Source of the DNA: an uncultured bacterium | GTDB taxonomy: Bacteria; Muiribacteriota; Ozemobacteria; Ozemobacterales; Ozemobacteraceae | Reading direction: 5' to 3' | DNA length: 64,000 nucleotides | Assembly (NCBI GenBank): GCA_964389325.1 | Contig: CAYMEN010000003.1 | Span: 62,502 to 126,501 of the forward strand | Shown here: piece by piece, positions 3 through 57,411 of the stretch | How the letters are laid out: each line of letters begins with the position of its first letter | Numbering within the stretch: position 1 is the first letter of the stretch | Made by a program: the position numbers and the translations under genes | Notes under the pieces: model-generated | The model's database searches: none | What the model saw: the letters and a program-made list of their open reading frames with translations, nothing else | What the model was told of the DNA's origin: nothing

Positions 3-308
3 GGGGCGACGGCTCCCTATCCCGATGTGGAAAGCGATCTCCACCCACAGATTCACCTGGCGAAGCCCGCCGAGGAAAACTGGTCGCTCTACACCTCCGC
101 CGCAGATGATCCGGCATGCCCCATCGAAGGAAAATATCAGCTCAAATCGATCCGCCTCGACAGCTCGCTCGATGGGATGAGCATGGTGCAGGACGCGTAT
201 GAACTCCAGGTGGAGGCAAAGGTGAAAGGGACGGGCGGCCTGACGCATACCGATTTCGTGAAGGAGCAGATCATCATATCCCGATTCACCGGGGGGATCG
301 GGCCATGA
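3..308 (+). CDS. hypothetical protein, 5-prime truncated by window edge; stop overlaps start of downstream pseudopilin gene (ATGA)
   Basis: Open frame from window start with strong G/C third-position bias; TGA at 306-308 overlaps ATG at 305. Confidence 0.4.
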   Translation, partial: GATAPYPDVESDLHPQIHLAKPAEENWSLYTSAADDPACPIEGKYQLKSIRLDSSLDGMSMVQDAYELQVEAKVKGTGGLTHTDFVKEQIIISRFTGGIGP

Positions 309-1141
309 ACCGGCAGATGGGAAAAAAATCGCCGACGCGCGGCATGACGCTGATGGAGGTCATGGTCGCCGTCGCCCTCGTTTCGCTCGTGTTCGGGGTC
401 GCATACCGGATCATGGACCAGGCCCGGCGGGAGACACGCAAGGGATTCTGGCTCCAGAAGGCAATCACCGAACTTCGCAACGGGACCCGCGCGATCTCGA
501 TGCGCCTGAAAAAGACGAGTTATCCGACGTCGGTCGTCCGGACCGGGGGCCAGCAGACCGTCATCTCATTCAAGGAAAAGAGGACCTACGACCATTCGGG
601 CCGCCTGCGGAACCTGGTCGTCAACAGTTCGAACGCCATGAACCTCGTGACGAAAACCGGCGTCGTGCGGTCGTCGGCTTCCGAGATCGTTCTGATGCGG
701 TTCCCCGTGTGCGTCCCCGAGATGGATATCGATTCATATACCCCTGGCATCATCACATGGGTCGAGGTCGTCATGGAGCCGCAACCCGACTTTTCCATCA
801 ACGGCCTTTCGCGTATTTTCCTCCGCGAACGTGACGACGCCTACGACACCAGAGCGCTCCCCGACCGGGCGTATGGCCTGTCGACCGCGTTCGATCCCGC
901 CCTCGCCGTCGCGAGCAGAAAAACCCTCATCGGCGACGTCGAGCAGGTGATGATCGACAAGTGGCCCATCGACGAACTTTCCGGCGTCCATGTGACGAAC
1001 GCGGGCACGGTTGGCACGACGACGAAAAAGAAGTATCTCGTCTCGTTGCGGATTGACTGCTTGAATCCCATCGACAAAGCGATGATGATTGGCGACCAGA
1101 GCGCCGTCACGGTCAACACCGACGTGAGCGTCTTTCCCTGA
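305..1141 (+). CDS. prepilin-type N-terminal cleavage/methylation domain protein (pseudopilin-like)
   Basis: N-terminus RGMTLMEVMVAVALVSLVFGVAY matches G-F/M-T-L-x-E prepilin leader plus hydrophobic helix. Confidence 0.6.
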   Translation: MNRQMGKKSPTRGMTLMEVMVAVALVSLVFGVAYRIMDQARRETRKGFWLQKAITELRNGTRAISMRLKKTSYPTSVVRTGGQQTVISFKEKRTYDHSGRLRNLVVNSSNAMNLVTKTGVVRSSASEIVLMRFPVCVPEMDIDSYTPGIITWVEVVMEPQPDFSINGLSRIFLRERDDAYDTRALPDRAYGLSTAFDPALAVASRKTLIGDVEQVMIDKWPIDELSGVHVTNAGTVGTTTKKKYLVSLRIDCLNPIDKAMMIGDQSAVTVNTDVSVFP

Positions 1142-1660: not shown

Positions 1661-2237
1661 ACGATGTCTCCTTTGTGGTTATGAAATACGCTTCCGTATA
1701 CGATCAGGTGCCGCGTTGTCGAGTTGTCTCGCAGAGCGGCGATGGAAGCATGATAGCAACGGGCGTGCCACCTGCTGAAACCTCTGTGTGATGCGACATG
1801 TGAGCGACCGAAATGCTCCAGGATCTGATGAGCGTGCAGAAAATGCATGGATACCATGTGAAAATTGCGTGGCCTTGGATGCCGCCCGCGAGCGGAACTC
1901 GACGGGCTCTCGCAGTCACTGCCAATGAGCCCTGGAAAGCGAAAACCTTCCCTTGGCCCTGAGCTTGTCGAACCCTGTCCTGAGCCTGTCGCGGGGGGGT
2001 GAGAGCTATTCGTGTTTCGACAGGCTCAGCACGGACGGAACGCGAAACAGGTTTACCTGTGCGGGAGGCAACACGTGTGCTGCATCGTCGTGATCGTGCC
2101 GTTCGCAAAACATCGGAGAAAAGCCTGGGATGGGCATGTCGAGAACCTTTGGCTGCCATGGCATGATTTGTGCTGTGGGGAAAAACATGGTTATATGGGT
2201 TCGTCTTCGAATACCTACGGGAATCCAGGAGGTGCTG

Positions 2238-3638
2238 ATGTCTCGTCCCGATCGCCTGCTCGCCGCCATGTTCTGTCTGACCTTCGTATCGCTGCCCGGC
2301 TTTGCCGTCGAACCCCTTTCGATCGGCGAAGCCGTGAGAAAAGCCCTGGACCACAGCCCGGCTCTCGGCGCCGCACGGGAGGGAGAGACCGTGGCGCGCG
2401 AAAAGATCGGCGAAGCCCGGTCGATGCGCGGCCTGAAAGTGACGGCCGGCGTTTCCGACACGCGCCTCGACAGCCCGATGATGGCTTTCGGAGCCCGGCT
2501 CGACCAGGGCCGCATCTCGATGGCCGACTTCCAGCCCGACCGGCTGAACGATCCCGATGCGGTGAACAACCTCAAGATCGGTGCGCAGGTCGTCCTGCCG
2601 CTCCATCTCGGCGGCATGGATCGTCACGCGGAACGTGCCGCGCGGTTCGGCCTCGATGCGGCCGCGCAGGACACCGCGCACGCTTCAGAGGAAACGATCT
2701 TCCGCACGATCGACACGTATCTCGGGGTCGTGCTTGCCCGCGAGAGCCTCTCGGTGGCCGATAAGGCCTGCGAGATGTCGGCCGAAAGCTTGAAGAACGC
2801 GCAGGCCGCCGTCGAGGCCCAGCGCGCCGTCGAATCGGACCTTCTCCAGGCGAAGGTCCACCACTCGCAGAACCAGGAAACCAGCCTCCGGATGCAGAAC
2901 CAGTACCGGCTTGCCCTCGAGGGGCTCGCCACGGTGATGGGCGTCGCCTCAGCCTCGGATTACGAGTTAACCATGCCGTTGCTTCAGGAGGAATGCACCC
3001 CCTGCGGGGAAGAGCCCGCGCGGCTTCTGGATACCGCCCTTCGTCAGCGCCCCGATTATCTTGCCCTGCTGAAGCGCGCGGATGCCGTTTCGCAGAGCGA
3101 ACGCATGCACCGCGGCGCGGTCCGGCCCCATGTCGTGCTTGGGGCGGCTGCCGATCACAACCGCGACGGCTTCGGCGGCGATGGCCATGGCAACAGCATG
3201 GTGTTCGCGCGCGTCGACTGGAACATCGCCGACGGCGGAGAAGCGAGCCACAAGGCCGCGGGGGCGAAGGCCCAGTCACGCCAGCTCCGACTGGCGGCGC
3301 AGGCCCTGAGGGACGGGATCCATCTCCAGGTCCGCGAGGCCCTGACGGGCATCAACAACGCGCTCGAGCGGATCAAGGTCAGCCGGGAAGCCGTCGAGAA
3401 CAGCACCGAGTCCCTCCGCATCCTGCGCGACCGGTATACGGCTGGTCTGGCCATCATGAGCGACCTGCTCGGGGCCGAGGCCAGCCTCCTGTCGCACCGC
3501 ATGAATCATCTGAGAGCCCTGTATGACTACTCGATCAGCCGCGCGCGCCTGAAGATGGCCCTCGGCGATCTCACGCTCGAGCGGTGCGCCCTGCTCCAGG
3601 ACGAGGCAATCACCACGGAATACGTAAACCGCAGATGA
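2238..3638 (+). CDS. TolC-family outer membrane efflux protein (OMP component of tripartite RND system)
   Basis: Signal peptide MSRPDRLLAAMFCLTFVSLPGFA after a GGAGG RBS; two OEP-like repeats; coiled-coil-rich alpha-barrel-like sequence; immediately upstream of MFP and RND genes. Confidence 0.75.
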   Translation: MSRPDRLLAAMFCLTFVSLPGFAVEPLSIGEAVRKALDHSPALGAAREGETVAREKIGEARSMRGLKVTAGVSDTRLDSPMMAFGARLDQGRISMADFQPDRLNDPDAVNNLKIGAQVVLPLHLGGMDRHAERAARFGLDAAAQDTAHASEETIFRTIDTYLGVVLARESLSVADKACEMSAESLKNAQAAVEAQRAVESDLLQAKVHHSQNQETSLRMQNQYRLALEGLATVMGVASASDYELTMPLLQEECTPCGEEPARLLDTALRQRPDYLALLKRADAVSQSERMHRGAVRPHVVLGAAADHNRDGFGGDGHGNSMVFARVDWNIADGGEASHKAAGAKAQSRQLRLAAQALRDGIHLQVREALTGINNALERIKVSREAVENSTESLRILRDRYTAGLAIMSDLLGAEASLLSHRMNHLRALYDYSISRARLKMALGDLTLERCALLQDEAITTEYVNRR

Positions 3639-3750
3639 CGCTGATGAGGACGCGGATTGGCGCGGATGGCAGGAAAACAATATCGAATAGTTTAAATATT
3701 TATAAATACATGAACAGATGGTTCGATGCCATGAAACGGGAGAAATTTGT

Positions 3751-4893
3751 ATGAATATGACTATAAAATTTTGTGTCGTCGGCCTTGTCGGGATGGGGTT
3801 TCTGTTTCCTGTCGCGACGCTGTCGGCGCAGGATGCCTGGCAGACGGCCGCGAACGTCGAGCAGAGCCTGGTCTACGAGGCGATCGGGAATATCCAGCCA
3901 AAGGTCGTGACGACGCTTTCCAGTAAGGTCATGGGGAACGTGCTCGAGGTGCTCAAGCGCGAGGGAGACACGGTGAAGGCCGGCGAGACCGTCGTGAAAA
4001 TCGACGCGCGCGACGTCGCTTCCGACCTGGCCGGGGCTCGGGCGGGGCTTTCCGAAGCGGCCGCGATGAAAACCGAGATCGACCGGGGCCTCCAGGCCGC
4101 CCAGGCGCAGAAACAGCAGGCCGACGCCGGGCTGAAGCTGGCCGAATCGTCATTCCAGCGCATCACGGAGCTGTTCGAGAAAAAGTCGGTCAGCAAGCAG
4201 GAATACGACCAGGCCGAGGCGGCGTTCACGTCGGCGCAGGCCCAGGTGCGCGGCGCCCAGGCCCAGATCGACTCGCTCGAGGCGAAGAAGTCGACCGTCA
4301 ACGCCCGCATCTCCCAGGCCCAGGCCGGCATCAGCAAGGTCGAGACGATCAAGGACCTCGCCGAAGTCACGGCGCCGTTCGGCGGCCGCGTCACGGCCCG
4401 CCGCATCGAGCCCGGCATGCTTGCCGCCCCCGGCGTGCCCCTGCTGACGATCGAGGATTCATCGCAGCTGCGGTTCGAGGCGATGGTGCCCGAGCGGTTC
4501 ATCGCGTCGATCACCGAAGGCATGCAGGTCGATGTCACCATCGACGCTCTCGCGGGCCGCACCTTCTCGGGCGTCGTCGCCGAGATCCTGCCCTCCGCCG
4601 ACGCCCTGTCGCACACCTTCATCGTGAAGATCGCCCTCGCGGCCCAGCCCGGGTTCAAGAGCGGCATGTATGCCCGCGGGGCGTTCGTCATTGGCTCCGA
4701 GACCGTGCTTCTCGTTCCGCCGACCGCGATCGAGATCCGCGGCCAGCTCGAGGGCGTCTGGGTCGAAACCAGCGGAAAGCCTGTCTACAGGCTCGTCAGA
4801 ACCGGCCGGACGATGCGGGGCGGGATTGAGATTCTCTCCGGTCTCAAGCCGGGCGACCGGTTCCTGCCCACTCCGCCCGCAGGAGGAAACTGA
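3751..4893 (+). CDS. RND efflux membrane fusion protein (periplasmic adaptor subunit, HlyD/AcrA family)
   Basis: N-terminal signal/anchor, biotinyl-lipoyl-like beta hairpin motifs (GETVVKIDARD, GGRVTARRIEPGM), long AQAQ coiled coil, 4 nt upstream of RND pump. Confidence 0.8.
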   Translation: MNMTIKFCVVGLVGMGFLFPVATLSAQDAWQTAANVEQSLVYEAIGNIQPKVVTTLSSKVMGNVLEVLKREGDTVKAGETVVKIDARDVASDLAGARAGLSEAAAMKTEIDRGLQAAQAQKQQADAGLKLAESSFQRITELFEKKSVSKQEYDQAEAAFTSAQAQVRGAQAQIDSLEAKKSTVNARISQAQAGISKVETIKDLAEVTAPFGGRVTARRIEPGMLAAPGVPLLTIEDSSQLRFEAMVPERFIASITEGMQVDVTIDALAGRTFSGVVAEILPSADALSHTFIVKIALAAQPGFKSGMYARGAFVIGSETVLLVPPTAIEIRGQLEGVWVETSGKPVYRLVRTGRTMRGGIEILSGLKPGDRFLPTPPAGGN

Positions 4894-4896
4894 CGC

Positions 4897-8136
<3,240 letters not shown>

Positions 8137-8307
8137 TTCCTCCGGGGAAACAACACGGGCGCGGGGCCGGATATTCAGGCCTCGCGCCGCTTTTTCGCCG
8201 GCGATATCTATGTTCCGGAAAGGAAACGACATCCGCAGATGGCGCAGATGACGCAGATATAATATGAATATTTATATATAAGCACCCGGATTCAATACGG
8301 TCTTGAA

Positions 8308-8352
8308 AAACGCCTTCGCCGCGAGCCTGGAAGCACGCAGCGAAGGCGTTTT
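8308..8352. terminator. bidirectional rho-independent terminator between convergent RND pump and anti-sigma genes
   Basis: Perfect 13-bp stem AAAACGCCTTCGC ... GCGAAGGCGTTTT flanked by A/T runs on both sides. Confidence 0.55.
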
Positions 8353-8359
8353 GCACCGG

Positions 8360-9460
8360 CTAGTTGGCTCCGGGTTGGTGGTCCAGGAGGGTGGACAGCG
8401 GGTCGTCGGAAACGGCGGCCGGCGAGGCGGTTGCCGATGCCGGCTGGAGCGTCGGGGACGCCACGGTGGGCGCGGAAGCGGGCTGCGGGAATGCCGGTTG
8501 TTCGATGACCTCCGTCTGCGTCGCCGTTTCGGAGGCGACGGCGGCCGTGGCGGGATCGATCGTGCGTGGTGAGGGGAATCCCCAGGCCCGGATATCGGAT
8601 TCGGCGAGCGTTTCGAGAGAGACCAGTTCACCGCAGACTGCGCGGGTTCCGGGAGTGAGAATGACCGGCGGTTCCGAGGCGATGGCCAGGGTGAGGTTCC
8701 CTGCAAACAGATCGATACAGGTGGTGTTCGAAGCTATTCTGACGCCAAACGCCGCATTGTTGGCCTTAACCGAAGCGATTCCGGCGTTCAGGGTGCGGGC
8801 CCTGGCAGGCTGACCGGATTTGAAGTCGCACCTGGCCGCCCCGGCCTCGAGCCGGATTTGCTCGTTGTCGATCGTGAGCCTGGAGTCGGGGAGAAGGTCG
8901 ATCCGGCCGCTCGATGCGACCGAGAGGGCGAAGCGGCCGTCGATTCCGGTGGTGAAGCAGGTCGGCTCGGTGAAGAGGCCGTTCGTCAGGTTCGTCGAAG
9001 CGCTCCAGCGGCCATCCGCCAGGATCAGGCCGACAGGGTCCTCGAGTTTCCCGGCCAGCGTCGCCCGGCCCTGGACCGATGTCCGTGTGACTCCCGGCCC
9101 GTCGGAAACGGGGCGGGAAACCGAGAAAAACAGCAGCCCGGCGAGGGCGGCCGTGGCGAGAACCGACAGCCATCCGATGAACCGCCGACTGCCGCCGGCC
9201 TGTTCGGCCGTGTCGGGCTCCGCCTGGACGGGAACCGGAAGAGCCCGGACGGCGGCCATGATGCGCGGCGTGAGGTCGGGGCCTTCGCGGAGGCGCAGCC
9301 GCTTCAGATCGGCCTGGCCCCGGCGGGCTTCCTCGATCATCGCCCGACACGCGCCGCATTCGCCGAGATGGCGCTCGAAGGCGGCCAGCTCGCTGCCCTG
9401 CAGGGCACCGTCCAGATACTCGCAGCACGTTATTTCATCGAAATGGTTCATATCGTTCAT
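8360..9460 (-). CDS. anti-sigma factor (zf-HC2 type, single TM, periplasmic domain with P/A/T-rich C-terminal tail)
   Basis: N-terminal CCEYLDGAL...FERHLGECGACR zinc-finger anti-sigma motif; TM WLSVLATAALAGLLFF; located directly downstream of ECF sigma gene. Confidence 0.7.
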   Translation of the reverse strand: MNDMNHFDEITCCEYLDGALQGSELAAFERHLGECGACRAMIEEARRGQADLKRLRLREGPDLTPRIMAAVRALPVPVQAEPDTAEQAGGSRRFIGWLSVLATAALAGLLFFSVSRPVSDGPGVTRTSVQGRATLAGKLEDPVGLILADGRWSASTNLTNGLFTEPTCFTTGIDGRFALSVASSGRIDLLPDSRLTIDNEQIRLEAGAARCDFKSGQPARARTLNAGIASVKANNAAFGVRIASNTTCIDLFAGNLTLAIASEPPVILTPGTRAVCGELVSLETLAESDIRAWGFPSPRTIDPATAAVASETATQTEVIEQPAFPQPASAPTVASPTLQPASATASPAAVSDDPLSTLLDHQPGAN

Positions 9461-9513
9461 CCTGTCGTTCTTAACTTCCCCTGAAACGACCGACGGTTAC
9501 ATGAATCGAACAC

Positions 9514-10101
9514 TTATTTGCTCTCGCTCCCGAAAGCGGCGGGCAAATCCGCGGGGGCTTCCTTCTGCAGCGTCTGCCCGAGTATGCGCCGGGCACGGAA
9601 CAGCCGTATTTTCACGAGATGCTGGGGAATTTCGAGAATCTCGGATATCTGCTGGTACGACCGTTCGAAAAAGTAGAACAGCCAGACGACGAGCTTGAAA
9701 TCCTCGGGAAGCCGGGCCATCGCCGCCCCCACCGCCTCCTGACGCTCGCGCCGGAGCTGCTCGTCGAGCGGATCGCAGAAGATGGGAATCTCTGCGTCGG
9801 GAAGCGGGACGGGGGTCTTTTTCCGGAGAGCCTTGTAACAGTGGTTGGTGGCGATTTTCAGGATCCAGTTCGTGAAGGAGCGCGACTGGTCGAATCGTCC
9901 GAGGCTCTGATACGTCGCGATGAACACTTCCTGGACGACATCCTCGGCCGCCGCGGGCCGTCGCACGTGATACAGCGCCATCATGTAAATCTTGCTCTGG
10001 TATCGCTTCACGAGCTCGCCGAACGCTTCCACCCGGCCAGCGAGCACCTGTCTGACGATCTCGGCATCCTCGGGCGGATGAGCTCCGGGGTGGTCCGTCA
10101 T
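9514..10101 (-). CDS. ECF-family RNA polymerase sigma factor (sigma-70 regions 2 and 4)
   Basis: Region 2 motif VQEVFIATYQSLGRFD...FTNWILKIATN and region 4 helix-turn-helix (SYQQISEILEIP...VKIRLFRARRIL). ATG at 10101 forms an ATGA overlap with the upstream pseudopilin stop; alternative ATG at 10110. Confidence 0.85.
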   Translation of the reverse strand: MTDHPGAHPPEDAEIVRQVLAGRVEAFGELVKRYQSKIYMMALYHVRRPAAAEDVVQEVFIATYQSLGRFDQSRSFTNWILKIATNHCYKALRKKTPVPLPDAEIPIFCDPLDEQLRRERQEAVGAAMARLPEDFKLVVWLFYFFERSYQQISEILEIPQHLVKIRLFRARRILGQTLQKEAPADLPAAFGSESK

Positions 10102-10649
10102 GGTTCCCATCCGGGGATGAGACTGTTGCTGGCGTGGTTCGAGCAGTAGATGAACCGGTTCACCTCGAAGACTTCCGTTCCCTTGGGCGGCGTACCGATC
10201 TTGAGGTGAACGCGGAAGCCCATGCGGTTGTCCGGCAGGTCGACCCGGGTGAACTTCGTGTCGAGCACCATCAGCTCGCGACAGTAGACATATTCTTCAG
10301 GCGTCCCCGACGTGGGGATGTGCTTCCTGATGAGACCCCGGTTGGAGGGCGGGCGCTCGTAGATAATCGAGCTCTGGGACAGCCCGCTCCCGTCGCTTTC
10401 GAGAATCCCGATCTTGGCGGAGGGCTCTTCGGAGCCGGGTTGCATCGAGGAAAGATCGACGGCGCGCTGGACGTCGTCTTCGATCTGGGAAAGCAGGATC
10501 GCGGTCGACTGGACGTTCGTGAGGTGCGCGGCGCCCTTCGTCGAGGTTTCCATGCCCTTCGACAGCAGGCGGCTGAGCGCGTAGACGACGATCGACGCGA
10601 GCAGCACGCTGACGGCGATTTCCACGAGGGTGAAGGCGCGACGTTTCAT
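10098..10649 (-). CDS. prepilin-type N-terminal cleavage/methylation domain protein (minor pseudopilin-like)
   Basis: MKRRAFTLVEIAVSVLLASIVVYAL prepilin leader + hydrophobic helix. Confidence 0.6.
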   Translation of the reverse strand: MKRRAFTLVEIAVSVLLASIVVYALSRLLSKGMETSTKGAAHLTNVQSTAILLSQIEDDVQRAVDLSSMQPGSEEPSAKIGILESDGSGLSQSSIIYERPPSNRGLIRKHIPTSGTPEEYVYCRELMVLDTKFTRVDLPDNRMGFRVHLKIGTPPKGTEVFEVNRFIYCSNHASNSLIPGWEP

Positions 10650-10652
10650 GGT

Positions 10653-11081
10653 TCAGCGGTTCCTGTATGTCATGCAGCTCATCGAGATGCTGCGCTTGAC
10701 CTGCGCGGTTTTCCAGGCGACCTCGGCCACCAGGACCTTGTAGATGAACGGCACCGTCGCGGGAACGGACGGGGTGATGACCGAGAGCTTCCGCTCGAAC
10801 CGGTCGTCGGCTTTGAGAACGAAGGTGGAGCCGTCCGCCTGCGTCACCTCGAGAGCATTCGCGTCGCGCGTTCCCGCCGCGAGGAACGGCGCATCGAACG
10901 GCCTGGACTGGGCGTAATCGAGAAGCTCGGTCGCGTAGGTGTAGGCGAGCACCTCGTCCCGGGTCTGCTGGGTGCCTGCCGCGCCCCGGGAGAAAATGAA
11001 AAAGATGGGGGAGAGGCACGCCGCGACAACGAGAACGGCGATCATGACTTCGGTGATGGTGAAGGCGTGTTTCTTGTTCAT
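10653..11081 (-). CDS. prepilin-type N-terminal cleavage/methylation domain protein (minor pseudopilin-like)
   Basis: MNKKHAFTITEVMIAVLVVAACL; start ATGA-overlaps stop of upstream 709-aa gene. The long ORF 10653..12251 in the track is this gene fused in-frame to an antisense artefact. Confidence 0.6.
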   Translation of the reverse strand: MNKKHAFTITEVMIAVLVVAACLSPIFFIFSRGAAGTQQTRDEVLAYTYATELLDYAQSRPFDAPFLAAGTRDANALEVTQADGSTFVLKADDRFERKLSVITPSVPATVPFIYKVLVAEVAWKTAQVKRSISMSCMTYRNR

Positions 11082-13207
11082 TTCAGCTGCAGGGGCGTGG
11101 GGTTGAGCGTGAACGAGAGGAGGTCCTGTTCGGAGGTCTCGTCGGCGGTCTGCCCGGGAAGGGCGGCGAGGGGAAGGGCGTATTCGAGCTCGGCGCCCTG
11201 GGAGGCACTCGAGATGTCGAACCGTTTCATGGCGACGGCCCCCTTGATCTGCGGCCGGCCGTTGTCGGTCACGGTGACGCGCCCCTTCGGCGCGGTCAGG
11301 GCGGCCTGGACGGGGCCGTTGATGTCGAGGGTGATGTCGCCGTCGAGCGTGACGAGTTGGAGAACCTTGAAAGCGGAACCGACGGTGGCGTTGATCTTGT
11401 TCGAGATGACGATGTTGCCCTTTTCGAGCACGATGCCGCCGTTGCTCACCACGTCGAGATTCTGCGTGATAAGCATGTCCGTTGCCCCGGGCACGTACAC
11501 CCAGCCGTTGAGATCGAGCTTGTTGCCCTTGAGCAGGCCGCGGTCGCGGAGATTGTTCCAGATGTCCTGCGGGGCATTCCCGGCCGGAAGCGTCCAGCTG
11601 GTGCGCTTTCCCGGGACATGCATCGCGCTGATGAAGGGCGTGATGGATTTCAGGCTGTTCGCGCCGGTGAGGCTGTCGAAGGGCGCCGGAATCGCGTGCA
11701 TCTTTTCCACCGGCGGAAGCGGATCGGAATTCATGAGCGTGAGGAGCGGGCTCGTCTGGAGGCTGGGGAGCGGGAACGCCAGGTTGTTGTTGGTGACCAT
11801 GATGGCGATGGAAAGATTGTACGGGGTGTATGCGAGGTTGCTGGCGAAATCCTGGTTGAATTTCTTGAGCGATTCCCCCGAAGAGGGGTTGAAGTAGGTC
11901 ATGCGGAGGCTTGGGTCGATGAGAGTCGTGAACGTGGAGATATTGTCGTTCTCCGGCATCGGCATCGGCGACAGATACTCCTGCCAGTATGTCAGGTTGC
12001 TCGCATCGCCGGGGACGCAGTTCAGGAAATCGGGGGTGAACCGTTTCCGGAGATCCTTGATCGCTTTCGCGGTGATGTAGGAGCGATACACCTCGCCGAG
12101 AACGAGGGTGGGAGACTTTTTCGAATCGGTGCCGTACAGCCGGAAGATCGAGTTGAAGCGGGCGAGTGAAGCAAGTTTCGAGTTGGCGATGAACCCCCAC
12201 CATTCGCGTGCGCCCGACGAGGTCGTGTCGAAGGTGGTTCCCTGGTCCCATCCGAGGAGGGCGATTTCACCGGCCGGATCGAGCCATTTGAGCGTGTACA
12301 GCCCATCGCCCTTGCCGCTCTTGAACAGGTGGAAACCTTCGGCGTATTTTCCCGGGCTGGGCCAGCCGCGTGCGAGGTTGAGATACATCCTGCCGCCGCC
12401 GAGATAGATGAGGCCGCGCTTTCCCTGGACGAGGCTGTCGAAGGTGAGGCTGCTGAGCGAAAGCTGGTCGTCGCCGTTCCAGAGCACCCAGGGCGTGACC
12501 TGATACCCGGTCTGGAGATTGCCGGTGACGTCCGTTGCGGCGAGGTTGAACCGCCACGGGGAACGGGTCGGTGAGCCGTCCAGCGCATCCTCGACATACA
12601 GGGTGAACTTCGAGAGCACCGGGATGATGGCGGCCGTGACCTTGACGCGGAGGGCGTAGTGGTAGTCTTCCGGATACTCCGGACCGTTCGTTTTCTTGTA
12701 CCTGATCGTCACATACAGGTGGATGATGCCGGATTTCTCTCGCGGAAACTTCGAGGAAATCGCGGAAAAGTCGCCCGCCCGGCATTCATACCGGATCTCG
12801 TAATTGAAGGTTCCGTGAGCCGCCAGGGGCTTGATCAGCTCTTTGACGACGTTCGAGAGATCCGGATCGCCCGAGTCGAACGCGATGGGAGGGTTGGCGG
12901 TGCGCGAAAGGTCGCCCATGCCGCTCACAGGCTTGCGGAGGTAGGTGACGAGGGGGTGATCGGGCCTGAGAAGGATATCGTGCTGGATTTTCTGCGCCGC
13001 GAGGTGAGCGAGGGAATTGGCCAGCACGCCCGTGATGCGCTGCTGGGCCTGCTTGTGCCCCGCGCGATTCTGTCTCACCATATACTGGATGAAATATCCG
13101 CCGATGAGCAGAAGCGCGAACATGACGCCTCCCGCCAGGATCAGAACCGAACCGTTCCGGTTCGATGCCTGCCTTGGGGTGGGTGCGGGCCGGGGCGGAA
13201 GCGTCAT
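11078..13207 (-). CDS. large membrane-anchored hypothetical protein (709 aa), N-terminal TM without prepilin cleavage motif, beta-strand-rich C-terminal region; possible GspK/minor-pilin-complex-like component
   Basis: TM VLILAGGVMFALLLIGGYFIQYM near N-terminus; G/C third-position bias; translationally coupled to downstream pseudopilins. Confidence 0.5.
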   Translation of the reverse strand: MTLPPRPAPTPRQASNRNGSVLILAGGVMFALLLIGGYFIQYMVRQNRAGHKQAQQRITGVLANSLAHLAAQKIQHDILLRPDHPLVTYLRKPVSGMGDLSRTANPPIAFDSGDPDLSNVVKELIKPLAAHGTFNYEIRYECRAGDFSAISSKFPREKSGIIHLYVTIRYKKTNGPEYPEDYHYALRVKVTAAIIPVLSKFTLYVEDALDGSPTRSPWRFNLAATDVTGNLQTGYQVTPWVLWNGDDQLSLSSLTFDSLVQGKRGLIYLGGGRMYLNLARGWPSPGKYAEGFHLFKSGKGDGLYTLKWLDPAGEIALLGWDQGTTFDTTSSGAREWWGFIANSKLASLARFNSIFRLYGTDSKKSPTLVLGEVYRSYITAKAIKDLRKRFTPDFLNCVPGDASNLTYWQEYLSPMPMPENDNISTFTTLIDPSLRMTYFNPSSGESLKKFNQDFASNLAYTPYNLSIAIMVTNNNLAFPLPSLQTSPLLTLMNSDPLPPVEKMHAIPAPFDSLTGANSLKSITPFISAMHVPGKRTSWTLPAGNAPQDIWNNLRDRGLLKGNKLDLNGWVYVPGATDMLITQNLDVVSNGGIVLEKGNIVISNKINATVGSAFKVLQLVTLDGDITLDINGPVQAALTAPKGRVTVTDNGRPQIKGAVAMKRFDISSASQGAELEYALPLAALPGQTADETSEQDLLSFTLNPTPLQLK

Positions 13208-13228
13208 GACGTGAGCGCGAAATCCATC

Positions 13229-13624
13229 TTAAAAATCGTTTCGCGGAAGACTTTTCAGCTGATTGGCGGGCGGTGTTGATTCCGGACGCTTGGGATCGGC
13301 GGTGCTGAGAGTCGTCGTCGGCCGCTTGGCGGCCTCGTCGTCCGAAACCTCGGTATAGGCCGTGACGTCGATGTAACTCTTATACACGTACCGATTGGTG
13401 GAACCCTGGAAATTGATCTGATACCAGCTGCCCACCACATCGACGATCGACACGGCATCGCCATAGTAGATGACGGTTACGACCGTGTAATTCGTTCCCG
13501 GGCCGGTCCGGACGTTGAGCCCGTTGCAGTTCACCTTCCCGGCGGACGGAACCTGCATGGCCCAGAGAACACTGGTCAGAAACAACGTTGCGAACAGGAT
13601 TGCCGGCCATTTGTACCCTCGCAT
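13229..13624 (-). CDS. secreted bacterial SH3 (SH3b) domain protein
   Basis: Signal peptide; LNVRTGPGTNYTVVTVIYYGDAVSIV...WYQI matches SH3_3 pattern; AAAGGAG RBS 8 nt upstream of ATG at 13624 (track start 13642 is a GTG inside the RBS). Confidence 0.55.
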   Translation of the reverse strand: MRGYKWPAILFATLFLTSVLWAMQVPSAGKVNCNGLNVRTGPGTNYTVVTVIYYGDAVSIVDVVGSWYQINFQGSTNRYVYKSYIDVTAYTEVSDDEAAKRPTTTLSTADPKRPESTPPANQLKSLPRNDF

Positions 13625-13704
13625 GGCGTGGACTCCTTTCACCGGGTGATCATTCGTATCTACCGTCGAAGGGCGGAAAAGTTACACTTTTTTCGGGGGG
13701 TGCG

Positions 13705-14703
13705 TCAGATGGCGATGTCCCGGAGCATGGCGGCCGCGTCCTCCGGCGGGGTGGGGTTGATGTAAAAGCCGGAACCCCATTCGAAGCCGGCGACGTTCGT
13801 CAGTTTGGGAATGATCTCGAGATGCCAGTGGTAGAAGTCGCGGTAAGACTCGGAGCACGGGGAGCTGTGGAGCACGAAGTTGAACGGAATCCCCGGGAGC
13901 AGGGCTTCCAGGCGCTTGAGCGCTCCCTGCAGCGTCGCCGCGAACGAGTGCACGTGTTCGTTGTCGATGTTCTCGAAAAACGGCTGGTGCGTCTTGGGAA
14001 TGATCTCGATCTCGAAGGGAAACCGAGAGGCGAAGGGGCAGAACGCCATGAAATGCTCGTCCTGAATGATGATCCGTGAGGACTGCTCGGTTTCCTGACG
14101 AAGTATGTCGCAGAATATACATCTATCGTGATAATGGAAATACTCCCGCGCGCCGTCGAGTTCCTCCTCGATGCGCTTCGGGATGATCGGAGTGGCGATG
14201 ATGTGCGAGTGGGCGTGGGAGAAGTTCGACACGCCCCGACCGCTGTTTTTCACGATCATCAGGTGCTTGAACCGGGGGTTCTTCTTGATCTCGAGCAGGC
14301 GCTGCTTGTACGCCCAGATGACTTCGCGAACCATATCTATTGGTATTGATTGCAGCGTCTGCGTGTGCTGCGGGGTTTCGACGAGCACCTCGTGGATGCC
14401 GATCGAGTTCATCGCGTCGAACATGCCGATGCCTTCCCGGCCGGCGTCGCCGGCGGGAACGAGGATTGGATCGCGGTCGGGGATGACGCGGACCCACCAG
14501 CCCTTCTCGTTCGCGGCCGTGCCGGCCTTGCGGAACGACATCGTCTCGGCGGGAGTCAGCCGCTCGTTGCCTTCGCAGAAGGGGCACTCGGCGGTGTCAT
14601 CGGGCGCCCCGGTCGGAACCGGATAATCGTGCGGCCGTTTCCCGCGTTCGGGGGAGATGATCACCCACTGCTTCAGGACAGGGTCTTTTCTCAGCTGCGG
14701 CAT
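13705..14703 (-). CDS. galactose-1-phosphate uridylyltransferase-like protein (class I GalT / HIT superfamily nucleotidyltransferase; could be ADP-glucose phosphorylase-like)
   Basis: CPFC zinc motif, HxHxx nucleotidyl-histidine motif SHAHSHIIATP, overall GalT-like length and organisation. Confidence 0.7.
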   Translation of the reverse strand: MPQLRKDPVLKQWVIISPERGKRPHDYPVPTGAPDDTAECPFCEGNERLTPAETMSFRKAGTAANEKGWWVRVIPDRDPILVPAGDAGREGIGMFDAMNSIGIHEVLVETPQHTQTLQSIPIDMVREVIWAYKQRLLEIKKNPRFKHLMIVKNSGRGVSNFSHAHSHIIATPIIPKRIEEELDGAREYFHYHDRCIFCDILRQETEQSSRIIIQDEHFMAFCPFASRFPFEIEIIPKTHQPFFENIDNEHVHSFAATLQGALKRLEALLPGIPFNFVLHSSPCSESYRDFYHWHLEIIPKLTNVAGFEWGSGFYINPTPPEDAAAMLRDIAI

Positions 14704-14706
14704 TGG

Positions 14707-15777
14707 CTACCTCGCACTCGTGCCTGATTTTACGGCGGGGGCATCGGCGGAGGCCGCCGGTTCGTCGGTGTGTTCCTCGTCGAGCGACGCCTGGATGAGA
14801 TACTTCGCCGCATCCTCGGGCGGAACGTGGTTCACGTAGAACCCCGAGCCCCATTCGAATCCTGCGACCTTCGACAGCCGGGGCATGATCTCGATATGCC
14901 AGTGGAAGTAGTCGGCGCAGTGCTCGTCGCACGGGGACGTATGGATGATGTAATTGAACGGCGGCTGGTCGAGCGTCTTGATGAGCCGCCGGAGGGTGCC
15001 GCTCATCATCTCGGCGAGGTTGTCCAGTTCGGCCTCTTCGATGTCGCCGAAGGATGCCTTGTGGTCCTTGGGGGCGATCCAGGTTTCGAACGGGAAGCGG
15101 GATGCGAAAGGCGCGAATGCGACGAAACTCTCGTTCTCATGGATGATCCGGTTGCCGGCGCTCAGTTCCTGGCGGATGATGTCGCAGAAGACGCAGCGTT
15201 CCTTGTAGTAGTAATACTGGCGGGCGCCTTCAACCTCTTCCATGACGCGCTTCGGGATGATCGGGGTCGCGATCAGCTGGGAGTGCGGGTGATCGAGGCT
15301 GGCCCCCGCGGCGGCGCCGGAGTTCTTGAACAGCAGGATGTAACGGAACCGCCTGTCGCGTTTGAGGTCGCGGTACCGGTCGGCGTAGGCGCTGACGATC
15401 TTGAAGACGTGCTGTTTCGAGTAGGCTTCGAACCCCTGATCGTGGATCGGTGTCTCGATGATGACCTCATGGGCCCCGACACCGTTCATCATGTCGTAGA
15501 GGCCGAGGCCGGTGCGGTCGAGGTCGCCCTCGATCTGGAGGGCGGGGTAGCGGTTCGGAACGACGCGTACCTGCCAGCCCTGCTGGTTCGGGAGGGTGTT
15601 CGGCTCCCGGTAGGACATCACTTCCGGGGGCGTCATCGACTCCTGGCCCGGGCAGAACGGGCATTTTCCGGTCTGTGCCTTCGGTTTTGCCGAAGGGAAG
15701 TCTTTCGGGCTCTTCGCCTTTTCGTGTACGATGATCACCCAGCGCTTGGTGACCGGATCCTTGCGGAGTTGCGGCAT
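14707..15777 (-). CDS. galactose-1-phosphate uridylyltransferase-like protein, tandem paralog
   Basis: CPFC motif and canonical HPHSQ motif; 3-nt spacing to downstream paralog; start taken at MPQLRKDPV (ATG 15777) rather than upstream in-frame ATG at 15840. Confidence 0.7.
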   Translation of the reverse strand: MPQLRKDPVTKRWVIIVHEKAKSPKDFPSAKPKAQTGKCPFCPGQESMTPPEVMSYREPNTLPNQQGWQVRVVPNRYPALQIEGDLDRTGLGLYDMMNGVGAHEVIIETPIHDQGFEAYSKQHVFKIVSAYADRYRDLKRDRRFRYILLFKNSGAAAGASLDHPHSQLIATPIIPKRVMEEVEGARQYYYYKERCVFCDIIRQELSAGNRIIHENESFVAFAPFASRFPFETWIAPKDHKASFGDIEEAELDNLAEMMSGTLRRLIKTLDQPPFNYIIHTSPCDEHCADYFHWHIEIMPRLSKVAGFEWGSGFYVNHVPPEDAAKYLIQASLDEEHTDEPAASADAPAVKSGTSAR

Positions 15778-15996
15778 CCTGACCTCCCGGGGTCCCCCAG
15801 ATTCATCGGGAATTATACTATGCCTCCCCGACAATCGCAACGGCCGGTAGCGGGGAATACACGAACTGGTGCCCCTCCGCGAAAATCGTTGACAAGGTGA
15901 CTGCGCTCGGTTACACTTGCACCGGTCGTGATCCGCGAGGTCACGCCGTGCATTTCATACATGAAACGATGGCGAAAAGGCAAAAAGAGGTAATCC

Positions 15997-16563
15997 ATGG
16001 GACGGAAGCGAACGTGTGAGCTCCCATTCTGCAAGGGCGTCGTTGAGGGTACCCGCAATAAGCGCCGGTGCGACAACGATCGGAACATCCATCTGCACCA
16101 GGTGATCTCGAAGAACGTGAAGAAGATCATGCGGTACATCGAAGTCCGCGACGATTTCACCGCGAACGACGTCAACCGCGATCTGTTCAAGAACCGCCTG
16201 GACAAAAATGAGAAGGGTTCCATGTACCGTCTCTTCCAGGCGATGGTTCGCGAAGAGTATCTCATCGAACTCGGCAAACGTGAAGGGCTGAAGGTGTATG
16301 CCTTCCACGGCCGGGCAGGCCGCGCGGTTCTCATCGACGAACCGGCTGCCGCGCAGTCCGCGCCTGTCTCGCAGCCTCTGACGCCGCGCGAACTGCTCAT
16401 CGGCAAACTGCGGGAGTTCGTGCACATGAAAAACGGCACCTGGAACCACGACGACTGGCTCTGGCTCGTGAACCGCCAGGACGTCCGCGACCTCGGCATT
16501 CCCGAGCACGAGCTCGGCGCCCTCCTCGAGGAAGAAAAAGCCCGCTACTGGCTGCACAGGTAA
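15997..16563 (+). CDS. hypothetical basic protein (Cys/Lys/Arg-rich N-terminus, possible zinc ribbon/nucleic-acid binding)
   Basis: AAAGAGG RBS; strong G/C third-position bias on + strand versus overlapping antisense ORFs; N-terminus RKRTCELPFCKG...KRRCDNDRN. Confidence 0.45.
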   Translation: MGRKRTCELPFCKGVVEGTRNKRRCDNDRNIHLHQVISKNVKKIMRYIEVRDDFTANDVNRDLFKNRLDKNEKGSMYRLFQAMVREEYLIELGKREGLKVYAFHGRAGRAVLIDEPAAAQSAPVSQPLTPRELLIGKLREFVHMKNGTWNHDDWLWLVNRQDVRDLGIPEHELGALLEEEKARYWLHR

Positions 16564-16734: not shown

Positions 16735-17097
16735 TTATTCCTCGTCGTCTTCCTCGTCTTCCTCGTCCTCATCGTCGAAGTCTTCTTCGTCTTCGTCGTC
16801 AAAATCTTCTTCTTCTTCGTCTTCGAAGTCTTCGTCTTCCTCGTCTTCTTCGTCGAACTCGTCTTCGTCGTCGAAGTCTTCTTCATCTTCGTCGAGGTCT
16901 TCTTCGTCTTCTTCGAGGTCTTCGTCTTCTTCGTCGTCGTCGAAGTCTTCTAAATCTTCTTCTTCTTCTTCTTCGTCTTCGAGGTCTTCTTCTTCGAGGT
17001 CTTCTTCTCCCTCGTCCTTCTCATCCTCGTCGACGTCTTCCCAGCGCTTCTTCGGAGACATCATCTCCTCTTCGATCAACCAGTCGTTCGTCGGCAT
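16735..17097 (-). CDS. hyper-acidic D/E-repeat protein (120 aa; non-repetitive N-terminus MPTNDWLIEEEMMSPKKRWEDV followed by about 90 residues of almost pure Asp/Glu with occasional Leu/Phe)
   Basis: AAAGGGGA RBS 8 nt upstream of the minus-strand ATG; own terminator hairpin downstream; the opposite-strand reading is a poly-Ser ORF without RBS. Confidence 0.5.
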   Translation of the reverse strand: MPTNDWLIEEEMMSPKKRWEDVDEDEKDEGEEDLEEEDLEDEEEEEEDLEDFDDDEEDEDLEEDEEDLDEDEEDFDDEDEFDEEDEEDEDFEDEEEEDFDDEDEEDFDDEDEEDEEDDEE

Positions 17098-55103: not shown

Positions 55104-55140
55104 CGGGGAAACGGTGCGGACGATGCAAGAGCCCGGTACG

Positions 55141-55731
55141 ATGAGACGTCTTTCGAGACGACTCGCCGTTCTCTTTGCCGCTGCTCTGTTGCTTGCTGCG
55201 GGGTGCAGCCGAAAATCGCAGGGTCCGGGCGTGAATGGCCCCGGGAAAAAAGGGGCGGAATCTGCCGCCCGGCCCGGCCAGGCTTCCGGCACGACCTCGC
55301 CGGCAGGCACAGGAAATGGCGCCATTTCATCGGGTGGCGCAGCCCTTCCGGATCGTGGCGAGATACAGAAGACATCCATGACTCCCGCCATCAGACGCGA
55401 GTTTGAGCGTCGGTATGAGAAAGGCATCGCGCTCCTCGAAAAGCAGGACTACGGCGAAGCCTCGCGCATTTTCGAGCAGCTTCTCTCCGAGAGCTCCGAT
55501 CCGCAGGACGCGAGCATTGCCGCCTACTGCCTCGCCGAGATCTGCTTCCGGAACAAGTCGAATGCACGGGCCCTCGAACTGTTCAAGGAAATCGTCGAGA
55601 AGTATCCCGGCACTCCGGCCGCCGACAACGCGAAGGCCGGGATCGAATACCTCGAGAATTTCCACAAGCACGAGGCAGAGTACGTTTCCCCGGACGTGGA
55701 GGATCGGAAGCGCCGGGGAGCGGGCCGGTGA
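55141..55731 (+). CDS. TPR-like lipoprotein (lipobox LAAGC), YbgF-like
   Basis: MRRLSRRLAVLFAAALLLAAGCS lipoprotein signal; Gly/Ser-rich linker; C-terminal TPR-like helices. Confidence 0.55.
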   Translation: MRRLSRRLAVLFAAALLLAAGCSRKSQGPGVNGPGKKGAESAARPGQASGTTSPAGTGNGAISSGGAALPDRGEIQKTSMTPAIRREFERRYEKGIALLEKQDYGEASRIFEQLLSESSDPQDASIAAYCLAEICFRNKSNARALELFKEIVEKYPGTPAADNAKAGIEYLENFHKHEAEYVSPDVEDRKRRGAGR

Positions 55732-55762
55732 GGGCCCCGTGCGGCGAAAAGGGCGGAATGGC

Positions 55763-56242
55763 ATGAAACAGGCGTTCGAACGGCGGCACGGCTTCTCGAT
55801 CATCGAGGTGCTCCTGGCGATGCTCATCATCGGGGCCGGCGTCGTGCCGGTGTTGTCGCTGTTTCTGACCGGTTCCCGCACCGTCGAGAAAGGCGGCCTG
55901 CTGCTGTCGGCCACCATCGCGGCCCAGAACGTTCTCGATCGCGCGAAGAGCGACGCGTTTCTCTGGGGCAACGTTCCGCTCACCCTCGATTTTCCCGACC
56001 CCGATCATCCGCAGTTCACGCTGCCCGCCTTTTTCGCGAAAAAATACAACGCCTCTGGAACCCTGATCATCGAGGAGGCTCCCGGACACACGGTCATCGG
56101 CACCGGTGAGAAGGAGACGAGCCTGGTCCAGATCAGCGTCATCATCCGCTGGATCGAAAACAAGACCGGGCGTTCGACCAGGCTCGTGACATACCGCGCG
56201 AACACGAACTGCTTCGACCTGAAAACATCCGCGAAATTCTGA
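55763..56242 (+). CDS. prepilin-type N-terminal cleavage/methylation domain protein (pseudopilin-like)
   Basis: RRHGFSIIEVLLAMLIIGAGVV prepilin leader/helix. Confidence 0.6.
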   Translation: MKQAFERRHGFSIIEVLLAMLIIGAGVVPVLSLFLTGSRTVEKGGLLLSATIAAQNVLDRAKSDAFLWGNVPLTLDFPDPDHPQFTLPAFFAKKYNASGTLIIEEAPGHTVIGTGEKETSLVQISVIIRWIENKTGRSTRLVTYRANTNCFDLKTSAKF

Positions 56243-56277
56243 TGAACCGCGAGGAGCACGTGAGGGACAACCCCGTG

Positions 56278-56895
56278 ATGACCCGACCGAGGAGCGGTTT
56301 TACGCTCGTCGAATTGTCTATATCTGCGGTTATTATATCGTTGATCGGCCTCGTTCTCGTGGCGGTCTTCCGCAGCAACCTCGCCACCTGGAAATGGGGC
56401 CAGGAGCACATGGAGTTCAACCAGAAGGTCCAGCTCGCCATGAAACAGGTGTTCACCGACATCAAGCGCATCAACCCCGTCGTCCTCACCGACACCCGGG
56501 GGAATCTCTGGTTCAAGGGAGAACGCATCGGTGACCTGTTCCCGAACGTCATCGAGGTCGTCGACACCGACAAACTACCGGAAAACGGAGGCGAGGAGTT
56601 GATCTTCCAGCACACGACCTACCGTCGGCCCGGCGAGAGGACACAGGTGCGGCTGTTTCTCGAGAAGGAGGCCCTCATGCGCGAGACGACGGACCAGAAC
56701 GGGTCCCGTTCCCGCGTCGTGATTTCCGACAGGGTCTCGAACCTGCATTTCCTCCGCAACACGGCTGATATCAACGAGATTTCCGTTACCATGACCATCG
56801 CGGACGACATGAATCCGAAACTCATCGAGGAGCTCGTCTTCGCCGTCCGTCTCGACACCGATCTCGTGTGCGTGAAAGCGAGGGACGGCTCATGA
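56278..56895 (+). CDS. prepilin-type N-terminal cleavage/methylation domain protein (pseudopilin-like)
   Basis: MTRPRSGFTLVELSISAVIISLIGLV; GAGGGA RBS before ATG 56278 (upstream in-frame ATG 56242 lacks RBS). Confidence 0.6.
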   Translation: MTRPRSGFTLVELSISAVIISLIGLVLVAVFRSNLATWKWGQEHMEFNQKVQLAMKQVFTDIKRINPVVLTDTRGNLWFKGERIGDLFPNVIEVVDTDKLPENGGEELIFQHTTYRRPGERTQVRLFLEKEALMRETTDQNGSRSRVVISDRVSNLHFLRNTADINEISVTMTIADDMNPKLIEELVFAVRLDTDLVCVKARDGS

Positions 56896-57386: not shown

Positions 57387-57411
57387 GGGACGGAGCCGTG
57401 GGAGGAAATAT

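Follow-up and report, generated by a model that had tools for sequence, protein, structure and literature searches.

An ECF sigma/anti-sigma pair within a conserved minor-pilin operon of Ozemobacteraceae, a candidate switch for one of several paralogous putative filament-tip modules

In a 64,000-nucleotide (nt) stretch of DNA from an uncultured Ozemobacteraceae bacterium (GenBank assembly GCA_964389325.1, contig CAYMEN010000003.1, positions 62,502 to 126,501 of the forward strand; hereafter the window), the genes for an extracytoplasmic function (ECF) sigma factor and an adjacent membrane anti-sigma factor directly follow three genes for pilin-like proteins, in an order that is conserved in related genomes. 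The pilin-like proteins are referred to here as BIG (709 amino acids, aa), PilS (142 aa), and PilL (183 aa), and are preceded by a protein with an SH3b domain. The start codon of the sigma factor gene overlaps the stop codon of PilL, and conserved ECF-type promoter motifs lie upstream of the SH3b gene (P1) and between the sigma and anti-sigma genes (P2). Taken together, our analyses favor, with moderate confidence, an autoregulated ECF switch that selects one alternative type IV filament tip module among several paralogous cassettes.

Organization of the operon

Eight head-to-tail open reading frames (ORFs) lie on the minus strand within positions 8360..15840, and all their junctions were re-derived from the sequence. 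The features, in the direction of transcription and in window positions, are as follows.

14707..15777, minus strand: GalT-like 2, HIT-family nucleotidyltransferase with an HPHSQ motif; then a 3-nt gap
13705..14703, minus strand: GalT-like 1, tandem paralog of GalT-like 2 with HAHSH; then an 80-nt gap
13656..13686, minus strand: P1, ECF-type motif TGTAACTTTTCC-N10-GGTAGAT in the 80-nt gap before the SH3b gene
13229..13624, minus strand: SH3b protein, ATG start after AGGAG; then a 21-nt gap
11078..13207, minus strand: BIG, predicted ComZ/GspK-like modular pilin of 709 aa; ATGA overlap into PilS
10653..11081, minus strand: PilS, pilin-like protein of 142 aa, presumed GspI-like; then a 3-nt gap
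10098..10649, minus strand: PilL, predicted GspJ-like minor pilin of 183 aa; ATGA overlap into the sigma factor gene
9514..10101, minus strand: ECF (group 4) sigma factor, start overlapping the PilL stop; then a 53-nt gap
9471..9501, minus strand: P2, second ECF-type motif, TGTAAC-N16-GGAAGTT, in the 53-nt sigma/anti-sigma gap
8360..9460, minus strand: single-pass anti-sigma factor with zf-HC2, a transmembrane helix, a FecR-like domain, a Pro/Ala-rich linker, and a C-terminal L..HQP
about 8307..8352, both strands: bidirectional intrinsic terminator hairpin with a 5' A-tract and a 3' U-tract

The terminal hairpin has a predicted RNA folding energy of -39.3 kcal/mol (z = -6.4). The likely start of GalT-like 2 is the ATG at 15777, which has a GGGAGG ribosome-binding site and begins a protein with the same MPQLRKDP N terminus as its paralog and orthologs; the TTG at 15840 gives just the longest ORF and falls inside the predicted promoter of the GalT pair. 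An earlier note on this DNA, made from the sequence alone, had described the same string of genes, and its eight ORFs, every gap and overlap, and the bidirectional terminator at the end were all reproduced, as were its domain calls (GalT, SH3b, ECF sigma, and zf-HC2), which Pfam and NCBIfam searches upheld.

Conservation of the operon and recurrence of its pilin cassette

Nine window proteins were compared with all ORFs of 59 retrieved loci (L numbers below). The full order in relatives is a divergent gene for a 188-aa protein, GalT2, GalT1, SH3b, BIG, PilS, PilL, sigma, and anti-sigma, and this order is kept in L002, L007, L010, L011, L012 (Candidatus Ozemobacter sibiricus), L014, L015, and L021, as well as in L009 up to the end of the contig. 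Because it is preserved in distinct Riflebacteria genomes across which the identity of BIG falls to 40%, the arrangement is not due to chance, and the conservation of gene order that the earlier note had proposed to look for was thus found. L007, a contig in an Ozemobacteraceae bin of sludge-digester origin, is 98% identical to the window. The window and L001/L002 also have a flanking ffh-rpsP-rimM-trmD region in common, which supports the orthology of the L001/L002 locus. In 11 of 11 sigma-bearing loci examined, a paralogous one included, the PilL stop codon TGA is overlapped by the in-frame ATG or GTG of the sigma gene as NTGA. The earlier proposal of a sigma/anti-sigma pair joined to a pseudopilin module is supported.

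The SH3b-BIG-PilS-PilL cassette itself is recurrent, with 58 BIG genes in 56 non-redundant loci. Both pilin genes follow BIG in 50 of these 58 cases, several of the other eight being visibly cut by contig ends, and an SH3b gene detectable by phmmer precedes BIG in 36. The sigma gene follows BIG in 10 of the 58, namely nine orthologs and one paralog (L005). Tandem copies of the cassette occur in L005, L041, L049, and L056, and in several bins the copy number is at least four to six. The place of the SH3b protein is taken in L005 by an OmpA-like protein; therefore, the first gene of the cassette tends to encode a domain of the peptidoglycan-binding type. This locus comprises two tandem OmpA-BIG-pilin-pilin cassettes (2592-17495 of L005), the second of which ends in an orphan ECF sigma gene without an adjacent anti-sigma gene, followed by transglutaminase and PG_binding proteins and, on the opposite strand, a PilQ/GspD-type secretin. 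A convergent gene of 366 aa located after this sigma gene was considered as its anti-sigma factor and rejected.

The named homologs of BIG belong to Candidatus Riflebacteria/Ozemobacteraceae bins, apart from one labeled Erysipelotrichia and one labeled only "bacterium". A profile search of 1.84 billion cluster representatives returned 695 members of the BIG family at E ≤ 0.001; those with a named source are from Riflebacteria, plus one from Wallbacteria, which carries the name "PilX N-terminal domain-containing" in UniRef, and one labeled Massilibacteroides. Ten remote members that were searched against Pfam gave no family above cut-off. The earlier note had contemplated an ordinary, widely duplicated family of pilin-like proteins of the PVC (Planctomycetes, Verrucomicrobia, and Chlamydiae) type, with no linkage to a sigma factor in relatives. 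A widely duplicated paralog family is indeed what we find, most copies being without a sigma gene, but it belongs to Candidatus Ozemobacteraceae (Riflebacteria) and not to PVC bacteria, and the sigma linkage is kept in the orthologs and in L005.

Candidate ECF promoters P1 and P2

The intergenic regions of the orthologs were aligned to find promoters. The gap between GalT1 and the SH3b gene contains a conserved TGTAAC(T)TTTCC-N10-GGTA(G/A)(A/T)T, and an ECF-type motif at the place upstream of SH3b where the earlier note had suggested searching is thus both present and conserved. In the consensus from 11 sites with a 16-nt spacer, GTAAC and GG.A are invariant. The pattern GTAAC-N16-GGTA has a single match in the 64-kilobase (kb) window (13685..13661, minus strand; 0.01 expected), and the relaxed form TGTAAC-N15-16-GG[AT]A matches P1 and P2 alone (0.18 expected), both in gaps of the operon. 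Across about 906 kb of related loci, the strict motif has 18 matches, of which 12 are syntenic P1 sites, 2 are P2 sites, 1 lies before GalT2 in L012, and 3 are non-syntenic.

P1 is found at the syntenic place in L001/2, L003/14, L007-L010, L012, L015, L018, and L021, and has no counterpart in L016 and L011; P2 is syntenic in L002, L007, L010, L011, L012, L014, L015, and L021. The L016 locus (38% identity) keeps the 188-aa gene, GalT2, GalT1, SH3b, BIG, PilS, and PilL and is devoid of the sigma and anti-sigma genes, of P1, and of P2. A related sequence, GAAC-N16-AGTA, precedes the cassette in L005, the paralog with a sigma gene. These patterns suggest that the linked sigma factor would read both P1 and P2. 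In L014, the sigma/anti-sigma gap has grown to about 400 nt through GATTGA and AAAAGA tandem repeats (13690-13900 of that locus), and P2 still adjoins the anti-sigma gene. An exact scan of metagenome contigs for TGTAACTTTTCC-N9-11-GGTAGAT gave 12 matches, 2 of which are P1 of close relatives; the other 10, in contigs without a homolog of the operon proteins, were estimated to be compatible with chance and were not retained as a regulon.

The sigma and anti-sigma factors

The sigma factor is matched by Sigma70_r2 (62 bits), Sigma70_r4_2 (44 bits), and TIGR02937 (96.6 bits against a cut-off of 42.9), and it has the makeup of ECF group 4, with sigma-2 and sigma-4 domains alone in 195-198 aa and an adjacent same-strand anti-sigma factor with a transmembrane helix. 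The closest named sigma models, both scoring below their cut-offs, are the envelope-stress factors SigW and RpoE. The anti-sigma factor is matched by zf-HC2 (27.7 bits against a cut-off of 22.2, E = 3e-6) and by the antisigma model NF052375 (E = 2.4e-10), and weakly by FecR PF04773 (16 bits against a cut-off of 24, E = 0.016), a match that is likewise weak in L003. Its orthologs have the same order of parts, that is zf-HC2, one transmembrane helix, a periplasmic domain, a variable linker rich in Pro, Ala, and Ser, and L..HQP, and the alignment of the periplasmic domain shows conserved FecR-like columns (LxxG and an FG..LFEG-like stretch). The L..HQP is invariant a few residues from the C terminus (window 8360-8400, minus strand; L002, L011, L012, L014, L015, and L021), and among all locus ORFs longer than 200 aa it is confined, as a terminal motif, to these anti-sigma factors. 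No TonB-dependent transducer was found in the neighborhood of the operon in the window or in the ortholog loci.

The pilin-like proteins and the SH3b protein

BIG matched no Pfam or NCBIfam family. Its AlphaFold2 model, built on a 52-sequence alignment, has a mean predicted local distance difference test score (pLDDT) of 90.1 and starts with a 57-residue helix (residues 20-76), and the N terminus carries a conserved RxG|SVL without a Glu5. In a structure comparison, the best match was ComZ of Thermus, at fold level and 17% identity, with pilin domains lower down the list (S. sanguinis PilA, 6.1; GspK, 6.0; FimA, 4.7; EpsI, 4.7); a Foldseek search of the model against the PDB gave no significant match. 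ComZ is described as a GspK-like pilin into which a solenoid is inserted, and its structural study gave it the same two fold relatives, with GspK matching the pilin domain and an ice-binding protein matching the solenoid. That study also shows binding of ComZ to PilA2, which is GspI-like, and proposes a location at the pilus tip (PMC6561018). As modeled, BIG may resemble ComZ in combining a GspK-like pilin domain with a beta-solenoid. A hypervariable head was looked for in BIG and none was seen, conservation being fairly even along the protein.

PilS and PilL have class III signal peptides (KKHA|FTITE and KRRA|FTLVE, respectively), with a basic leader, G or A at -1, and a Glu5 that is invariant in 41 PilS and 40 PilL homologs. 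The N_methyl model scores 20.1 and 20.8 bits in the window proteins, just under the cut-off of 21.2, and is matched at E ≤ 0.01 by 27 of the 41 members of the PilS family and 35 of the 40 of the PilL family. The PilL model (pLDDT 80.6) has a helix (residues 8-61) followed by six strands forming a beta-sheet, in agreement with a GspJ fold, and the GspJ-like TTHA1219 of Thermus is among its top matches. At the sequence level, however, PilL matched no GspJ model of NCBIfam or Pfam, and the neighborhood contains no gsp cluster. A pilin-type N-terminal helix packed on a sheet is seen in the models of both PilL (8-61) and BIG (20-76). The globular parts of PilS and PilL matched no Pfam family and no PDB sequence; in the PDB, the profiles matched type IV pilins in the N-terminal helix alone and are therefore uninformative on the globular parts. 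The SH3b protein has a signal peptide, an SH3_3 domain (E = 2.3e-14), and a Pro/Thr-rich tail, and is probably a periplasmic accessory protein predicted to bind peptidoglycan.

A proposed switch and its alternatives

Our proposal is that P1 would drive expression of SH3b, BIG, PilS, PilL, sigma, and possibly anti-sigma. BIG (K-type, ComZ-like, with a beta-solenoid head), PilS (presumed I-type), and PilL (J-type) would make up a core minor-pilin set, and these three pilins presumably form the filament tip, the set priming and capping a type IV filament (pilus or pseudopilus) made by machinery encoded elsewhere; in a relative, a PilQ/GspD-type secretin gene is located three genes from a paralog cassette. 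The sigma factor would be translated by coupling to PilL and kept inactive by the membrane anti-sigma factor until a periplasmic cue inactivates the latter, probably by proteolysis, by analogy with other single-pass anti-sigma factors. Freed sigma would then fire P1, giving more of the tip module and more sigma (positive feedback), and P2, giving extra anti-sigma (negative feedback), the net result being a switch that would raise this one tip module among several paralogous cassettes. Several points weigh against this proposal: about 48 paralog cassettes have no linked sigma gene; in L011, which has P2, the place of P1 is occupied by a sigma-70-type promoter; the use of P1 and P2 as promoters is deduced from comparative sequence only, and the -10 element GGTA differs from the CGT type common in ECF promoters; the GspI-like nature of PilS is presumed from its size and position; and neither the window nor about 900 kb of locus flanks yielded an assembly ATPase (GPTGSGK[ST]), a platform protein, a prepilin peptidase, or a major pilin.

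As to the cue, the earlier note had suggested envelope stress or surface sensing, which we take as a guess. One version of the switch, which we regard as a long shot, is that the FecR-like domain and the L..HQP peptide of the anti-sigma factor find a docking site on either the SH3b protein or the ComZ-like subunit of the tip, and that loading of the tip, its exit from the membrane, or a pull on contact with a surface or ligand leads to release and degradation of the anti-sigma factor, upon which sigma fires. If true, the pilus would have its own equivalent of FlgM/sigma-28 or TonB-dependent cell-surface signaling. The pair might instead respond to its own products, sensing the membrane or periplasmic stress caused, for example, by unprocessed or unassembled pilins or by the bulky solenoid protein and adjusting their synthesis homeostatically with no external cue. 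The NTGA overlap, which ties sigma output in fixed proportion to the last pilin, a P2 placed before the anti-sigma gene as would suit a damping loop, and the nearness, albeit below cut-offs, of SigW and RpoE would all agree with such an envelope-stress monitor. We nevertheless find it doubtful, since the many cassettes that encode the same protein types without a linked sigma gene indicate that the products themselves need no such monitor, and the sizeable conserved periplasmic domain and invariant C-terminal motif of the anti-sigma factor look more like a specific docking interface.

The likeness of BIG to ComZ also raises the question of competence, in which case BIG would be the DNA receptor, of the ComZ type, at the end of a pilus for DNA uptake, and sigma would regulate competence. 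ComZ is the best structural match of BIG, TTHA1219 is among those of PilL, and Thermus ComZ binds DNA and adjoins GspI-like and GspJ-like pilins (PMC6561018). On the other hand, the match is one of fold, at just 17% identity, and no counterparts in BIG could be assigned to the two lysines with which ComZ binds DNA; moreover, no gene of the ComEA, ComEC, or DprA type was seen among annotated neighbors, and the at least four to six copies seen among the loci retrieved from several relatives are hard to square with a single DNA receptor, so that we consider a competence role quite improbable. Still less probable, in our view, is that the sigma/anti-sigma pair regulates other genes and stands after the pilins by inherited synteny without any regulatory link. 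The majority of cassettes without sigma, and the existence in L016 of a cassette without the pair, would fit such mere neighborhood, whereas the NTGA overlap in all sigma-bearing loci, including the independent paralog, the restriction of the motif pair to the gaps of this operon in the window, and the loss of the motif along with sigma in L016 all speak for a functional connection. The autoregulated switch thus remains the reading that we prefer.

The GalT pair and other neighboring genes

The earlier note had treated the GalT genes as part of one single string with the pilins and the sigma factor, and on this point our results differ. The following two features lie upstream of the SH3b-to-anti-sigma genes.

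15812..15840, minus strand: GalT-pair promoter, sigma-70-type TTGCGA-17-TATAAT, from a consensus scan
15997..16563, plus strand: divergent gene for a 188-aa protein, with a candidate promoter TTGACA-17-TACACT at 15889..15917

A TATAAT-type -10 lies upstream of GalT2 at the same place in the aligned ortholog loci, with a TTGCxx -35 in most. Because a conserved promoter of the sigma-70 type serves the GalT pair itself, with the ECF motif located downstream (3') of the two genes, the GalT genes fall outside the sigma-controlled unit, and the gene string probably consists of two transcription units, as far as this can be read from sequence. The GalT1/SH3b gap contains no stable hairpin and no terminator (z = +1.6); therefore, read-through from the GalT promoter is possible and could supply basal sigma. 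In L012, an extra TGTAAC-N16-GGTAAT (7039-7063 of that locus) is found upstream of GalT2; the ECF sigma factor might act on the GalT pair as well in this bacterium.

Both GalT-like enzymes contain GalP_UDP_transf and GalP_UDP_tr_C domains above Pfam cut-offs and are matched by TIGR00209 (112.6 bits for GalT-like 2 and 107.4 bits for the other enzyme, against a cut-off of 102.1), which, together with the HxHxQ motif (HPHSQ in GalT-like 2), places them in the galactose-1-phosphate uridylyltransferase family (HIT branch III). They are 50% identical to each other, and the Gln of the family motif, a residue important for the nucleotidyl-enzyme intermediate, is replaced by His in GalT-like 1 (HAHSH versus HPHSQ). 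The two enzymes may work together as a heterodimer in which one of the sites is altered. The closest solved structure to GalT-like 2 is 1Z84, Arabidopsis At5g18200 (E = 6.6e-75), which we take to be an ADP-glucose phosphorylase; the pair probably resembles this type of enzyme and forms a neighboring housekeeping-type unit, and we found no evidence of a function common to the GalT pair and the pilin module.

The 188-aa protein has no Pfam or PDB match. Its gene is present in every locus that retains the region upstream of the GalT pair, including the sigma-less L016, and an element alignable with its promoter occurs in several orthologs; from its position, one may guess that the protein is a regulator of neighboring genes. 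A TGTAAC near this gene was rejected as an ECF site, being the reverse complement of the -10 element of the gene's own sigma-70 promoter. Further along, 16735-17097 (minus strand) encodes a hyper-acidic protein of 120 aa made up nearly entirely of Asp/Glu repeats, with imperfect tandem repeats of 9-39 nt in the DNA, and L001 and L003 have similar-sized unannotated genes at the same place. On the other side of the operon, a resistance-nodulation-division (RND) efflux operon with OEP, HlyD, and AcrB genes (2130-8136) converges on the terminator region of the sigma operon, and just upstream of it lies a gene for a 278-aa protein (305-1141, plus strand) with a clear prepilin N_methyl motif (27 bits). 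The window also contains a second, more conventional minor-pilin-like cluster (55114-58725, plus strand) that encodes a lipoprotein of 205 aa resembling tetratricopeptide repeat (TPR) proteins, a PilV/GspI-like pilin of 159 aa (55763-56242), a pilin of 217 aa (56242-56895), a small protein of 172 aa whose N terminus is PilX/GspK-like (56868-57386), and a 457-aa repeat protein with weak NCBIfam matches below cut-off.

Significance and comparison with known systems

Minor-pilin tip sets decide what a filament binds or which cargo it carries, and how a cell chooses among several such sets is poorly understood. Here, one paralogous set appears to carry its own ECF switch, coupled to the last pilin gene and with recognizable promoter motifs. 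The system is compact, with a sigma factor, an anti-sigma factor, two candidate promoters, and four structural genes, and would allow reconstruction of its sigma-promoter step in another host. Its parts are of known kinds, namely ECF sigma/anti-sigma pairs, GspIJK-like core minor pilins, and ComZ-like modular pilins. What is new is the joining of these parts in a single conserved operon in which sigma is coupled to a pilin, the predicted two-promoter layout, the SH3b partner, and the large uncharacterized ComZ-like family with its amplification in Riflebacteria. In the literature on Riflebacteria pili and on ECF sigma factors with minor pilins, of which our coverage is incomplete, we found no precedent for an ECF sigma factor inside a minor-pilin operon. 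The newly defined BIG family, with its 695 cluster representatives, its predicted ComZ-like architecture, and its fixed SH3b partner, has no Pfam or NCBIfam model among the members tested.

Several known systems bear comparison with this operon. The GspK-GspI-GspJ tip of the type II secretion system pseudopilus (PDB 3ci0) likewise comprises three pilin-like proteins, and GspK lacks Glu5, as does BIG with its RxG|SVL; on the other hand, no gspC-M or GspG/H-like genes are found near the operon, the NCBIfam models for GspI, GspJ, and GspK are unmatched, and the predicted insertion in BIG is a beta-solenoid, whereas that of GspK is an alpha-helical domain. ComZ-PilA2(-PilA3) of the Thermus thermophilus competence pilus (PDB 6qvi) shares the adjoining small GspI-like and GspJ-like pilins, although BIG has 709 residues against 518 in the 6qvi chain of ComZ and is only 17% identical to it. 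The gene order also differs, an SH3b gene precedes, the cassette is multi-copy, and one copy carries an ECF sigma/anti-sigma pair, none being described for Thermus (PMC6561018). The Verru_Chthon cassette (TIGR02596-TIGR02600) is similar in bringing together, in a non-proteobacterial phylum, multi-copy proteins with prepilin motifs and one large protein; membership was rejected on the scores of TIGR02598 (18.1 against 51.4 bits) and TIGR02599 (14.4 against 256.5), the N-terminal helix alone being matched.

With regard to regulation, the operon resembles autoregulated ECF operons of the SigW-RsiW and FecI-FecR types in having a sigma factor of sigma-2 and sigma-4 domains alone, a single-pass zf-HC2 anti-sigma factor, and, upstream of sigma's own operon, a candidate promoter motif whose -35 contains AAC and a T-tract. 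The periplasmic domain of the anti-sigma factor is weakly FecR-like, as in FecI-FecR, but there is no TonB-dependent transducer. Unlike in these operons, sigma is encoded fifth and not first and is translationally coupled to a pilin, an extra copy of the motif lies between sigma and anti-sigma, and the -10 is GGTA. Finally, Myxococcus xanthus and Pseudomonas aeruginosa have multiple minor-pilin/PilY1 clusters that give alternative pilus tips. As in those bacteria, several paralogous priming or tip sets occur per genome in Riflebacteria, each with one large non-canonical subunit. The sets described here have three pilin-like proteins in place of four plus PilY1, and their large subunit is itself pilin-anchored; control would be exerted by an operon-encoded ECF sigma factor, whereas it is two-component systems that act on the PilY1 clusters.

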